Source of the DNA: an archaeon
Lineage (GTDB): Archaea > EX4484-52 > B79-G9
Direction of reading: 5' to 3'
Assembly: GCA_043813875.1 (NCBI GenBank)
Contig: JBDRKP010000074.1
Span: 1-8,095, forward strand
DNA length: 8,095 nt
Shown here in pieces: positions 1-3,000 of this stretch. Positions within the stretch are counted from its first letter, which is position 1. Every line of letters starts with the position of its first letter. A program made the position numbers.

Positions 1-3000
1 TTTTCTGATATAATTTGGGTTTGAGTGAGAAATTTTACCTGAAATTTTGTCGTAAAACGATTTGACACAAAATTTCTGCTCTGGTTCTGGGAGGAATTTT
101 ACAAAAAATACCCATTATCACGGAAATTTTTGGCAGACCCATATGACCGATAACTATATAAATACCCGCATACATATTTATGACATTCTGGAAAACTTGG
201 GCTCGGATGGGTGGAAGTCAAATACTTCTTGTTTCGGGATTGCTCCCGAAAACAAACTTCCTCCCCACCGGGACTTCTATTCATATCATGACAGGACATC
301 AAACTCATACTTATTTAGCCGATCGATACCTTTACTTCCTAAAACAACAGTATCTTCAAGTCTTATGCCAAATTTCCCTTTAACGTAGATTGCAGGCTCA
401 AGTGTGAATACCATGTTCTTTTTCAGCACAAATGAGGTCTTGGATGAAAGTGTAGGATATTCATGCACTTCGAGCCCCACACCATGACCCAGGCCGTGAA
501 AGTTCGAGTAATTTGTATGTTTATGACCGTTTTTCTCTAAAAATGATTTTGCAAGAGCATCAACATCATCTGAGCTCATGCCCGGAACGATTTCGTTTTC
601 GAGCAGTTTGTGAACATCCACAAGATCTGAATATGCTTTTTTCATTTCCGGATCATTACTGAAAATAAAGGTTCTGGATATGTCAGAGTTATAGAAACTG
701 CTTTTTATGCCCATGTCTATCAATACGAGGTCCTTGAATTTTCTTGTGGTCGGAGTGCCATGGATGTATGATGAGCCTTCATCGCCTGCGACCAGTATTG
801 GGAAACTCCATTCTTTCCCGCAGCCTACTATGAGCTGTTTGATTCTTTCGGAAATCTGTTTTTCTGATTTATCCTCCAAACCTTCAGAGACAAGGTCATT
901 GAGAACCCGATCTGCCAGCAGGCATGCGTTTTTTATTTCCGTGATCTCGGCATCATCCTTTATCGCCCTTATCTGAGAAATCTCTTTGCTTATGTCGACC
1001 AGACGGCATTTCGGCAGTTTCTTTAAAAGCGCGGAATAATAATTATAATCTACATTTCCGTCAATCCCAATTGTCATCCCATGACCATTCATCTCTTTTA
1101 GGTAATCTGAGATTTTTTTAGCCTTCAGATCGACTATGTTCCGTATGTCGGTCGCGGTTTCAGCTTTGTCCTTTTCGAATGTAAAGAGCGTTTCGGCGGC
1201 TTTTGTCAGTAGAATGGATGTAGGCCAGACGTCATAGAAACCAGTAAAATAATACACGTTTGGAATCGTGCTGGACTCGGGAGTAGTTATAGAGGAAATC
1301 AGTATCGCGTCCAGCTCTTTTTCGAAAAGAACCTTTCTTAAGAGTTGCAGGCGTTTTTTGCTGTTCATTACATTCATAGTCATCAGGAGTTATCAGAATT
1401 ATAGGATTTTGTGCGCGCTTCTCTGGATAAAAATATGGAATTCCAAATTATTGTATTCACAGGATTAGAAACAAAATAATATATAATTATCTTAAACTAT
1501 CCAGGGGTTGTAATTGTCGGCACAGGCATAACAGCCACGTTTATTCTCAAGCATCTCACCAGATTATCAAGCATCCTGCGGGCTTTCAGGATGTTTTTTT
1601 TGTCTTTTTTAATGTCTGAGCAGAGCAATTCATCGACACAGTAAATCAGCGGAATCTTTAGTTTCTTGCATGCGTTTTTCAGGGCAATAAAGCTTTCGGA
1701 TTCCGGCTTAAAATAAGCGAATACCTGCTCGTACTTGTGATGGGAAAGATATGTCTCAATGCGCTTCTCTGTTACTTTTATATACGTCTTTTTTATCTCG
1801 AGGGTCTCTTCCCATTCAGGCCAGTCATAGTGGGCGAACGGATACTTGGTTTCAAATTCGCGCGGGATTACGCCGGGATTCGATATCATGAGCTGGTGGA
1901 GGTTTGAGTAAAACGGCAACGCGGTCAGCCGTTTCAGCAACTCGTGATGGGTCTGTGATCTTGAGTATGGTTTGCGGTAAGAGCAGGGCAGAAAAAGAGC
2001 GTATTTCTTGATTTCCGGCTTTGTGTAAAAGCGCGCAAGATAGTCCTGCCATACATCATAGACGGGATTTTTTAGGTTGTCAATGGTGGCGCCTACAAGC
2101 GGTGGCTGGCTTTTGAAGCGAGGATAGGTTATGTAGTCTTCGAAGTAAATCTCGACTTTTTTGTTCTTGCGGTGTTTATTTACCAGTGATTCGAATCCGC
2201 GCCTGTCGATTGGGCGCCATTCGCCGTTCAGCCATAAGCTGAAGAGGGGCGCGTAGCCATATGCGAAGGTGTTGATAATCACGACGGAATCGCCATGCTG
2301 CTCTGCAAATCGGACCGAATCGGCGAGTGATTGGGATATATCGCCAATGTATGGCAGATTCGCCATGAGGTATGTTCTTACAAAAAAACCTTCTTTTTTG
2401 ATGAAGGCAACTGCGGCCAAATAATCGGATAGCTTGAATCCCTTGCATATTTTCGCGAGCACTTCATCGTCTGCAACTTCAAGACCCAGCGCAAAATGAA
2501 TCTTGAGTTTTTTGCCATTGCTGGCGTCTTTTATTACTTCCAGGTTTTTTTTGGTGATGTGGGTCGGCAGGCATTCGATCACGAGATCTTTTACGCCCAG
2601 CGCAATGCATTTTTTTATGAGATATTCCTGAAACTTCACCGGGATCTGCAATTCGTCGAGGAAGCTTCCCGAGTTTAAGTATTTCACGGTGTCGTACTGG
2701 CGGTTGAGTTTTGTATCAAGATCTTTTTTCAAGCGGTCAAAATCCGGTTTCGGGACATCCGGTTTCTTGCTGAAGCTACAGAAGATGCAGCGTCCCCAGG
2801 AACAGCGGCCTGATTCGACGACAATCACAAGTTCAGTCTTATTTGCACACATTTGTTCACACGAGTTCATTAACCGAAAATATAGTAAACGCCATAACTT
2901 TTTAGACTAATGGCGTTTCCATATCCTTAAAAATCTATGATTTTTAGGATCCTATGAATCGAAGATTCATAAGGATAGATTGACATCTCTTGGTTTTTGG

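Follow-up and report, generated by a model that had tools for sequence, protein, structure and literature searches.

The window analysed here, 8,095 nucleotides in length, comprises a whole contig of a metagenome-assembled archaeal genome (90 contigs, 91.5% complete), so that coordinates reported earlier for this contig are directly valid. It carries a gene in which a radical-SAM domain is joined in one frame to an ArcS C1 domain, placed head to head with a full-length tgtA gene. The features of the locus are as follows.

1497..2852, minus strand: coding sequence of the fused protein, 451 aa; open frame with both Pfam domains in one frame
1536..2162, minus strand: ArcS C1/DUF5591 half, residues 237-445 (PF17884, NF053620, NF040592, hhalign, 2q07)
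1947..1988, minus strand: codons of the ArcS C1 signature P295-C296-x3-K300-P301-Y302-x2-S305-x2-H308 (conservation)
2163..2843, minus strand: radical-SAM half with a RaSEA-like core, residues 10-236 (TIGR01210, hhalign, Foldseek, model)
2778..2804, minus strand: codons of C23-x4-C28-x2-C31, cysteines predicted to bind the [4Fe-4S]/SAM cluster (conservation)
2853..3202: intergenic spacer separating the fused gene from the divergent tgtA (sequence, inverted repeats)
3203..4921, plus strand: tgtA, tRNA-guanine(15) transglycosylase, 572 aa (TIGR00432; TGT, TGT_C2 and PUA domains)

The genome-wide survey's note had placed a 451-aa ORF (g01464) at 1497..2852, and ORF analysis of the contig indeed found an open frame there, which extends to 1497..2870 on the minus strand (457 aa) if an alternative ATG at 2870 is used. 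ATG 2852 is the likelier start, since homologues begin at this codon and the spacing of a TATA-like box favours it. This box, tttactatatttt at 2889-2877 and a putative promoter element, lies 31 nt upstream of ATG 2852 and only 13 nt upstream of ATG 2870. Residue numbers of the fused protein given in the following refer to the 457-aa form; subtraction of 6 yields the 451-aa numbering. Within 2853..3202, A+T-rich TATA-like boxes precede the starts of both the fused gene and tgtA, and inverted repeats are found in the spacer at 2887-2918 and 2922-2977.

The radical-SAM half matches Pfam Radical_SAM at residues 22-175 with 43.2 bits (cut-off 29.5). Its best family match is RaSEA TIGR01210 (E 4.2e-23, 82 bits versus a cut-off of 212.15), which aligns residues 13-220 of the fused protein to model positions 15-229 of 313. 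This agrees, after a shift of six residues, with the RaSEA-type domain below cut-off that had been claimed before, and the motif C17-x4-C22-x2-C25 named on that occasion is present as C23-x4-C28-x2-C31 in the 457-aa numbering. Comparison of a fused-protein profile with 21 canonical RaSEA sequences by hhalign gave a probability of 100 and an E value of 3.9e-49 over RaSEA columns 46-261 of 351. All 40 aligned fused proteins have C23, C28 and C31, and the corresponding columns hold cysteine in 39, 41 and 42 of 42 stand-alone RaSEA-type rows. Further residues common to the fused halves and these 42 rows are W25, K63, S67-G68-S69-F70, D72, E99, G129-L130-E131, K143, Y167 and P173, while Q75 of the fused protein takes a position where 40 of the 42 rows have glutamate. 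Because the cysteine triad and the core residues are kept in all 40 fused proteins, the radical-SAM half is under selection as an enzyme. Canonical RaSEA additionally possesses a Cys-rich C-terminal module (RGxHNCGKCD ... CxCxxxW), in which H276, N277, C281, C309, C311 and W315 are at least 90% conserved and position 278 is mostly cysteine (21 sequences). This module is absent from the fused protein, where the profile alignment ends at RaSEA column 261, and the 40-protein alignment holds no conserved cysteine beyond C23, C28, C31 and C296. Hence, the core motif and core residues of RaSEA are present, whereas the curated equivalog score is not reached and the Cys-rich module is missing; the partnership of RaSEA with ArcS is represented by covalent fusion in one frame, which documents linkage, not an interface.

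The second half matches DUF5591 (PF17884) at residues 274-412 with 74.7 bits (cut-off 26) and the ArcS models NF053620 (E 9.4e-24, 83.7 bits, cut-off 600) and NF040592 (E 4.1e-22, 78.5 bits, cut-off 440), in agreement with the E values of the survey, which had proposed an ArcS C1 core below cut-off. Against 12 canonical ArcS sequences, hhalign returned a probability of 99.8 and an E value of 6.1e-28 over ArcS columns 275-464 of 612. The ArcS C1 motif PC-x3-KPY-x2-S-x2-H, worded as in a preprint (bioRxiv 2023.04.13.536721), had also been claimed and is found, six residues further on, as P295-C-SYR-KPY-SR-S-QT-H308. Among 40 fused proteins, C296, K300, P301, Y302 and S305 never vary, and P295 and H308 are kept in at least 90%. 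All 26 canonical ArcS rows carry the same residues at the seven signature positions and also have H325, G333, P336, E338, Y348 and D349 in common with the fused C1 half. It departs from positions fixed in ArcS at E352 (V in 26/26) and K360 (E in 26/26). These two belong to a set of seven residues, W350, E352, E355, T356, K360, Y363 and R370, common to fused and stand-alone C1 proteins, for which canonical ArcS is fixed otherwise. As the survey had also proposed, the TGT-like and PUA domains of ArcS are missing: neither Pfam nor NCBIfam gave a TGT match in the fused protein, ArcS homology begins only at profile column 275, and the Pfam scan that detects TGT_C2 and PUA in the adjoining TgtA finds neither here. 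The C1 signature of ArcS is thus present, while its TGT-like, C2 and PUA domains and curated scores (440/600 bits) are not.

An AlphaFold2 model of the fused protein (mean pLDDT 92.9, pTM 0.88) shows one compact two-domain body with six beta-alpha units in the radical-SAM half, and W218, F226, G260 and W274 of the linker region are invariant in 40 fused proteins. In the tree of radical-SAM halves, the fused sequences constitute one clade apart from canonical RaSEA (SH-aLRT 98), and a careful tree of a 51-row subsample supports this clade with 100/98. In the C1 tree, 50 of 52 fused halves fall into one clade (support 94), and a single clade for all of them is not rejected (p-AU 0.689). Their neighbours in this tree are stand-alone and viral C1 proteins rather than canonical ArcS. 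The family can be described accordingly: a radical-SAM domain followed by C1, 420-490 aa, a conserved linker and one clade in each half-tree. In databases, its members carry only the labels 'DUF5591 domain-containing protein' or 'radical SAM protein'. Neither a description nor an experimental test of the fusion was found in the literature, although earlier comparative genomics may already mention it.

The fusion is confirmed as real and common in uncultured archaea. Of 8000 candidates scored in a word-indexed protein search, 145 proteins reached E<=1e-5 (the survey had counted 289 clusters at E 1e-20). Both domains are precomputed by Pfam in 106 of 120 homologues among the matches listed, and 133 of 267 proteins retrieved from many sources show the fused architecture. 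One scan located the gene in 148 species-level genomes. The survey's statement that the single chain occurs 'across DPANN' is too broad: the window's own phylum has the gene in 31 of 42 genomes, but the phylum around a Nanoarchaeota-labelled MAG has it in only 29 (plus one partial) of 301 sampled genomes, and it also occurs in MAGs labelled Thermoproteota, Culexmicrobium, Bathyarchaeota and Methanomethylicota. In three congeneric genomes (G002, G005 and G007, 79-89% complete) tgtA is present and the fused gene was not found. A clean two-gene split was not seen in the 301-genome sample, which contains one odd fragment pair (G316:C70). Five shorter relatives were matched; their sources mark at least two as partial, and they do not demonstrate split genes. 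No relative exceeded 800 aa, and hence no triple fusion with TgtA turned up, a length search being weak evidence on this point. A 544-aa protein (P0143) that resembled a third architecture was set aside as uninformative, as its radical-SAM part runs to the end of the chain and residues 1-312 have no match.

The divergent tgtA noted by the survey (g01465) lies at 3203-4921 on the plus strand, opposite to the minus-strand fused gene, and its product scores 502 bits with TIGR00432 (cut-off 350). Invariant columns in 21 aligned TgtA sequences include D89, D241, C274, C276, C279 and H295, which we take to be catalytic and zinc-site residues. This linkage recurs: of 80 related loci, 33 have tgtA within 4 kb (31 divergent upstream, 2 downstream on the same strand), and 28 of the 42 genomes of the window's phylum hold both genes, by coordinates divergent within 5 kb in 20 of these 28. 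The preQ0 genes assigned earlier to contig C48 were found there as an operon of QueD, QueE, QueC and FolE2, with a QueC of 221 aa devoid of an amidotransferase domain. The adjoining tgtA is the sole TGT-family match of the whole genome, the fused ORF provides both the sole DUF5591 match and the best RaSEA match, and scans of the 91.5% complete assembly detected neither PF14489 (QueF) nor a full ArcS. The survey's observation that separate arcS, raSEA, Gat-QueC and QueF-like genes are missing was thereby reproduced. In five other fusion-bearing genomes with five phylum labels, none has a RaSEA over cut-off, and the fused ORF is the sole DUF5591 protein in all five. Finally, of the 15 tRNAs identified in the genome, 12 show U8-A14-G15 by plain indexing.

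Among known systems, the ArcS-RaSEA complex of Euryarchaeota is alike in both catalytic cores and in its context of TgtA and preQ0 genes. It differs in being built from chains of roughly 330 and 600 aa instead of one of about 451 aa, while the fused protein is devoid of the TGT-like N domain, C2, PUA and the RaSEA Cys-rich module, and both of its halves sit on branches of their own. The earlier view of the locus as the Thermococcus pair in one chain is therefore borne out for both cores (hhalign E 3.9e-49 and 6.1e-28), but not as a simple weld, given the C1 affinity to stand-alone and viral proteins and the missing Cys-rich module. No structure of the ArcS-RaSEA complex was found in the PDB copy searched. 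The only solved structure of the C1 fold is AF0587 (PDB 2q07), a protein that comprises C1, C2 and PUA of a split ArcS. The canonical ArcS profile matches it at E 3.8e-71 and the fused protein at E 1.7e-9, in addition to a fold match by Foldseek; AF0587 has C2 and PUA and no radical-SAM domain, whereas the fused protein is the reverse. The radical-SAM half has its nearest solved relative in queuine lyase from Clostridium spiroforme (PDB 6p78; phmmer E 8.8e-9; Foldseek TM 0.69 on the target, 21% identity), with Elp3 as a further Foldseek match. Queuine lyase cuts an N-alkyl bond on the 7-deazaguanine side chain. It has the same Cx4Cx2C motif and likewise acts on a 7-deazaguanine side chain, but is a bacterial salvage enzyme for a free-base substrate, and it has no C1 domain, which the fused protein carries. 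Its product from queuine is preQ1, according to a review (PMC7694415). The C1 half, in turn, is closer in the tree to stand-alone C1 proteins and viral ArcS2 than to canonical ArcS, and matches proteins of Vibrio phage nt-1 (E 5e-8), STSV2 (E 8e-9) and Methanobacterium virus PhiF1 (E 2e-24). These relatives contain no radical-SAM domain and have DNA as known or presumed target, whereas the fused proteins carry a conserved radical-SAM half and keep H308 in 50 of 52 rows, compared to 11 of 33 stand-alone C1 rows.

With its fused architecture, conserved residues of catalytic type in both halves, linkage to tgtA and no alternative synthase found in the assembly, the gene most likely encodes a self-contained archaeosine synthase that would finish G+15 in tRNA. 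For the Thermococcus kodakarensis enzyme, Yokogawa et al. reportedly found in 2019 that ArcS (alpha) is a lysine transferase and RaSEA (beta) a radical-SAM lyase. By homology, a three-step route can be proposed. As equivalog-level family matches suggest, FolE2, QueD, QueE and QueC would make preQ0, which TgtA would exchange for G15. The DUF5591/C1 half would then attach an amine to the preQ0-15 nitrile, giving an N-alkyl amidine; by analogy with T. kodakarensis ArcS, this amine would be the L-lysine epsilon-amino group. In the third step, the radical-SAM half, with a [4Fe-4S] cluster on C23/C28/C31, would cleave SAM to a 5'-deoxyadenosyl radical, which would cut the alkyl C-N bond and leave the formamidine of archaeosine. 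The fusion may thus hard-wire an association on which the two-subunit enzyme depends, since ArcS requires RaSEA for its activity. The smallest substrates reported for that enzyme are preQ0 nucleoside derivatives (both J Biol Chem 2024, PMC11298593). As T. kodakarensis ArcS takes preQ0 nucleoside 5'-phosphate as minimal substrate, the chemistry seems able to proceed without the tRNA-binding TGT-like, C2 and PUA domains. The amine donor is probably lysine. A lysine relay is not a given, though, as M. jannaschii ArcS reportedly uses NH4+, Asn or Gln (PMC11298593), and as the C1-only ArcS2 of Vibrio phage nt-1 gave dG+ in E. coli in the absence of any RaSEA (bioRxiv 2023.04.13.536721).

Several observations were counted against the synthase reading: both halves score far under their family cut-offs, and no domain thought to hold tRNA is present. 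The grouping of the C1 half, the differences at E352, K360 and Q75, the missing RaSEA module and the tgtA-only genomes G002, G005 and G007 were counted likewise. A doubtful but still serious proposal is that the fused family represents a minimal 7-deazaguanine amidine synthase with a lineage of its own instead of a welded Thermococcus-type pair. Such a lineage would have lost, or never had, the RNA-binding and Cys-rich modules, and would either use an amine donor other than lysine or gain access to G15 only by receiving preQ0-tRNA straight from TgtA, with the tRNA still held open; this hand-over would explain the near-constant head-to-head pairing with tgtA. Somewhat less probable is that archaeosine or a related amidine is made from another amine, ammonia or glutamine, the radical-SAM half removing some other alkyl group or serving another task. 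The seven residues between W350 and R370, the replacement of a RaSEA glutamate by Q75, and the clustering of the C1 half with proteins that include the RaSEA-independent nt-1 ArcS2 speak for it; however, the triad and RaSEA core residues are kept in 40/40 fused proteins, and the nearest stand-alone radical-SAM relatives, scanned from an exhaustive search, are bona fide RaSEA, with 23 of 26 exceeding the curated cut-off. Moreover, the radical-SAM half has 0 matches among 50,697 phage records, so that the viral C1-only case need not apply. We regard it as very improbable that the product is not archaeosine in tRNA at all but modified preQ0 in DNA or another RNA, as with viral and defence-island C1 proteins. 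C1-only homologues do adjoin DNA transglycosylases in viruses, but the sole TGT-family gene here is a full TgtA with C2 and PUA above the tRNA-guanine(15) equivalog cut-off, Pfam and NCBIfam scans revealed no mobile or defence context in the window, and the pair of fused gene and tgtA is kept across housekeeping contexts in many lineages. That the frame is an artefact of assembly or gene calling, or a decaying gene, is scarcely credible even for a MAG in 90 contigs and a locus for which a look for RNA data over positions 1400-4950 turned up none, with the same architecture in the 133 proteins and 148 genomes mentioned above, a conserved linker and a confident two-domain model.

To our knowledge, archaeosine is almost universal at position 15 of archaeal tRNA, and we know of only a few euryarchaeal and crenarchaeal enzymes for its last steps. 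From sequence, we infer archaeosine synthase activity, the amine donor and the route to tRNA position 15 for the fused protein. If the synthase reading holds, the protein sets a minimum for the chemistry, namely one that manages with no PUA, C2, TGT-like domain or Cys-rich module. A single chain of about 450 residues with both predicted active sites and a confident, compact model would at the same time be a convenient object for a structure of the lysine relay. In many uncultured archaea with small genomes, the fused gene would supply the missing final step of archaeosine synthesis.

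The fused gene of the window, which joins a RaSEA-like radical-SAM half (RaSEA being the beta subunit of archaeosine synthase) to the DUF5591 or C1 domain of the alpha subunit ArcS, is real and conserved, a minimal version of this known two-subunit enzyme that is widespread. The window is one entire contig of 8,095 bp (C74), from a 1.64-Mb genome assembled in 90 contigs and 91.5% complete. The genes discussed here, annotated by Pfam and NCBIfam scans, are the following:

1497-2870 (457 aa), or from a start at 2852 (451 aa), minus strand: open frame of the fused gene, protein P0001
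3203-4921, plus strand: tgtA, 350 bp from the fused gene and on the opposite strand; 572 aa with TGT, C2 and PUA domains; TIGR00432 at 502 bits (cut-off 350)
4907-5335, minus strand: gene of an OB-fold protein
5298-5858, minus strand: RNA 2',3'-cyclic phosphodiesterase (ThpR/LigT), TIGR02258 at 140.5 bits
Remaining window genes: M24 peptidase; P-loop ATPase with winged-helix tail; DUF92 membrane protein
3495-5925 of contig C48 (locus L005) of the same genome: QueC region, marker of de novo preQ0 synthesis

The genome-wide survey's note had placed the start at 2852 and described the gene as divergently adjoining tgtA. Of the two starts, 2852 is the likelier: homologues begin there, and a TATA-like element and putative TATA box, tttactatatttt at 2889-2877, is spaced 31 nt ahead of this ATG and only 13 nt ahead of the upstream one. 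The divergent neighbour is a full TgtA. Adjoining this putative TATA box, a perfect 9-nt inverted repeat (AAACGCCAT / ATGGCGTTT, spacing 14 nt) is found within 2887-2918, and an imperfect palindromic pair of 29 nt occupies 2922-2977 in the intergenic region common to both genes; these repeats could be operator sites. Apart from the fused gene and tgtA, the window holds unrelated housekeeping genes according to Pfam and NCBIfam. The OB-fold and phosphodiesterase genes overlap by 38 bases and are both convergent to tgtA, the end of the former overlapping the tgtA stop region.

In P0001 (residues numbered on the 457-aa form), Pfam recognizes Radical_SAM at 22-175 and DUF5591 at 274-412, each exceeding its cut-off. 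In NCBIfam the best matches are RaSEA TIGR01210 (82 bits, residues 13-220) and, over residues about 242-414, two ArcS models (83.7 and 78.5 bits); the three scores lie far under the curated cut-offs because each match covers part of its model only. As the earlier note had also held, the TGT-like N domain and PUA domain of ArcS are absent, as is C2, both by Pfam and by profile-profile alignment to ArcS. AlphaFold2, run with an alignment of 40 fused proteins, gave one compact model (mean pLDDT 92.9, pTM 0.88) in which a radical-SAM half of six beta-alpha units is followed by the alpha/beta C1 half. Among solved structures, the C half matches AF0587 (2q07) at E 1.7e-9 and the N half queuine lyase (6p78) at E 8.8e-9 by sequence; Foldseek agrees, retrieving 2q07 for the C half; with the N half it retrieves radical-SAM enzymes, Elp3 and queuine lyase (target TM 0.69) among them. 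Searching the PDB with canonical RaSEA and ArcS profiles yielded no RaSEA and no full-length ArcS, just 6p78, 2q07 and ArcTGT.

Relatives of P0001 are numerous. When 5.8 billion proteins were searched through a word index, 145 of the 8000 candidates scored reached E<=1e-5. The 120 matches listed, mostly 420-490 aa long, comprise 106 with both Pfam domains, 13 with DUF5591 only and one with Radical_SAM only (precomputed domains). Exhaustive phmmer against 1.84 billion cluster representatives returned 929 matches at E<=1e-3, of which 146 reach 1e-10 and 24 reach 1e-30. When one HMM per half was run on the 267 proteins retrieved, 133 showed radical-SAM followed by C1, one the reverse order, 57 radical-SAM only, 75 C1 only and one neither. 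Across 40 aligned fused proteins with 39-70% identity to the query, the invariant residues include C23, C28, C31, S67, G68, D72, Q75, E99, G129, E131, K143, R165 and N200 in the radical-SAM half, W218, F226, G260 and W274 between the halves, and C296, K300, P301, Y302, S305, S330, G333, P336, E338, Y348, D349 and W350 in C1; thus, conservation spans both halves and the linker.

Both halves are connected to the canonical subunits by profile-profile alignment, fused columns 5-214 aligning to 46-261 of a 351-column RaSEA profile (21 canonical sequences; probability 100, E 3.9e-49) and columns 233-442 to 275-464 of a 612-column ArcS profile (12 canonical sequences; probability 99.8, E 6.1e-28). 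Of the 26 stand-alone radical-SAM matches scanned, 23 score above the curated cut-off for RaSEA, so that true RaSEA proteins are the closest free-standing relatives of the N half. This half retains the RaSEA core (C23, W25, C28, C31, K63, SGSF 67-70, D72, E99, GLE 129-131, K143, Y167, P173), and the C half retains the C1 signature of ArcS (P295, C296, K300, P301, Y302, S305, H308) with its surroundings (H325, G333, P336, E338, Y348, D349). At the same time, the fused form departs from RaSEA at Q75, where 40 of 42 RaSEA rows have glutamate, and at N171 and N200, which replace lysine and proline, whereas F345, W350, E352, T356, K360 and R370 replace residues fixed in ArcS (E352 for valine and K360 for glutamate, each in 26/26). 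A further difference is that the C-terminal Cys-rich module of canonical RaSEA, RGxHNCGKCD...CxCxxxW, is wholly missing. In an alignment of 21 canonical sequences, H276, N277, C281, C309, C311 and W315 of this module are at least 90% conserved and position 278 is a majority Cys. No statement on the module's role was found; binding of a further metal or cluster, or docking to ArcS, could be its task.

In a quick maximum-likelihood tree of the radical-SAM half (108 rows), all 52 fused rows fall in one clade (SH-aLRT 98), apart from the canonical RaSEA side, with seven short or fragmentary rows and one further retrieved protein, P0143, nested inside. In a careful tree built from 51 of these rows, a branch supported at 100/98 likewise sets the 24 fused rows apart, although the bootstrap was not fully settled. 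In the C1 tree (121 domains), the long canonical ArcS proteins are united with support 99 and sit on a long stem of 0.92, 50 of the 52 fused rows form a clade of their own (support 94), and stand-alone C1 proteins of 200-300 aa lie with the fused rows rather than with ArcS. Constraining all fused rows and nested fragments to one C1 clade, a group defined post hoc after tree inspection, gave a likelihood above that of the free search (p-AU 0.689). Together with the radical-SAM clade, one origin of the fusion hence fits both halves, and the trees indicate that the fused proteins are sister to the canonical subunits rather than a recent weld of them; being unrooted, the half-trees are compatible with fission as well as fusion. 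Two single sequences, P0140 (680 aa, on an 80.5-kb contig; weak DUF5591, then RaSEA) and P0165 (497 aa, on a 2.2-kb contig; DUF5591-C2-PUA, then RaSEA, nested among canonical RaSEA), suggest, if real, independent ArcS/RaSEA joinings in the opposite order.

In a scan of one genome per species, a relative of P0001 is encoded in 148 genomes. The 80 loci kept come from MAGs labelled Nanohalarchaeota, Aenigmatarchaeota, Micrarchaeota, Altiarchaeota, Iainarchaeum, Parvarchaeota, Woesearchaeota, Nanoarchaeota, Thermoproteota, Culexmicrobium and Bathyarchaeota. tgtA lies inside the 4-kb flanks at 33 of them (31 upstream divergent, 15 of these within 400 bp, and two downstream on the same strand) and is absent from the flanks at 47, 16 of which have an upstream flank below 2.5 kb. 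The earlier claim that the fused form occurs across DPANN is too broad, its distribution there being patchy: in the phylum around a Nanoarchaeota-labelled MAG, 29 of 301 genomes sampled have a full-length gene and one a partial gene. Five fusion-carrying genomes from five phylum labels contain exactly one DUF5591 each, in the fused ORF, and no RaSEA over cut-off.

Within the window's GTDB phylum, whose 42 genomes are incomplete and mutually related MAGs so that counts are descriptive, the fused gene was found in 31 (32 with a match, less one with a weak radical-SAM match alone), including 9 of 10 high-quality genomes, and TgtA in 33; both genes are present in 28, the fused gene only in three, TgtA only in five and neither in six. 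They are divergent and at most 5 kb apart in 20 of the 28. Of the genomes in the window's own genus, two (G001, G003) show a spacing of 2.8-3.8 kb, and in three (G002, G005, G007) tgtA is preceded by 1.4-2.2 kb of sequence, yet the fused gene was found neither there nor elsewhere in the assemblies; hence, tight head-to-head pairing is not fixed in the genus. Another member, G006, has two distinct fused-gene copies on separate contigs (68% and 46% identity to the query), which suggests two strains binned together or a true paralogue.

Regarding the remaining pathway, the survey's picture was borne out: the 91.5% complete assembly contains one DUF5591 and no canonical ArcS match, and its single QueC (221 aa) has no amidotransferase domain and is encoded together with QueD, QueE and FolE2 in an operon on C48. 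One TGT-family gene is present. A QueF-family search found none, its controls having matched bacteria only, with its reach to crenarchaeal QueF-like proteins unproven. As 12 of the 15 tRNAs found by aragorn read U8-A14-G15 (plain indexing), these tRNAs and the preQ0 genes together provide substrate and precursor supply and, with no other synthase found, the fused gene is the only last-step candidate in the assembled 91.5% of the genome. A xanthine/hypoxanthine-type phosphoribosyltransferase gene (C48 3034-3498; best match NF006613 at 62.9 bits, below cut-off) overlaps the start of queD by 4 bases; apparently it opens the queD-queE-queC-folE2 operon, and it could provide a link to purine or 7-deazapurine salvage. 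QueC was found in four of the 42 phylum genomes, all from the window's genus. Other members of the phylum, for the most part, seem to obtain preQ0 by salvage; the genus, with its larger genomes, synthesizes preQ0 itself and may have acquired its operon.

Databases label fused proteins 'DUF5591 domain-containing protein', 'radical SAM protein' or 'archaeosine synthase alpha-subunit', and full-text literature searches retrieved no paper describing the fusion, though Yokogawa 2019 may have drawn on it for comparative genomics. The points added by this analysis are that each half is a distinct clade, with the C1 half affine to a stand-alone and viral group, that the RaSEA Cys-rich module is missing and glutamine 75 stands for the RaSEA glutamate, and that de novo preQ0 genes are confined, within the phylum, to the window's genus.

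The fused protein is predicted, with good support, to be an archaeosine synthase performing the last step. In the most parsimonious reading, TgtA would put preQ0 into tRNA, the C1 half would join an amine to the preQ0 nitrile, and the radical-SAM half would cut the alkyl C-N bond, leaving the formamidine. According to a report on the Thermococcus kodakarensis enzyme (PMC11298593, J Biol Chem 2024), ArcS is active only when complexed with RaSEA, ArcTGT does not co-purify with ArcS, and preQ0 nucleoside 5'-phosphate is taken as substrate. The first point explains why fusion would be favoured, and the last shows RNA-binding domains to be unneeded for the chemistry. Phage nt-1 ArcS2 yielded dG+ in E. 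coli without RaSEA (bioRxiv 2023.04.13.536721). The C half of P0001, which is nearer to stand-alone and viral C1 proteins, matches proteins of nt-1, STSV2 and virus PhiF1; the radical-SAM half gave no match against phage records. Position 15 is buried in the folded tRNA, and the fused protein, without an RNA-binding module, may depend on remodelling of the tRNA by TgtA.
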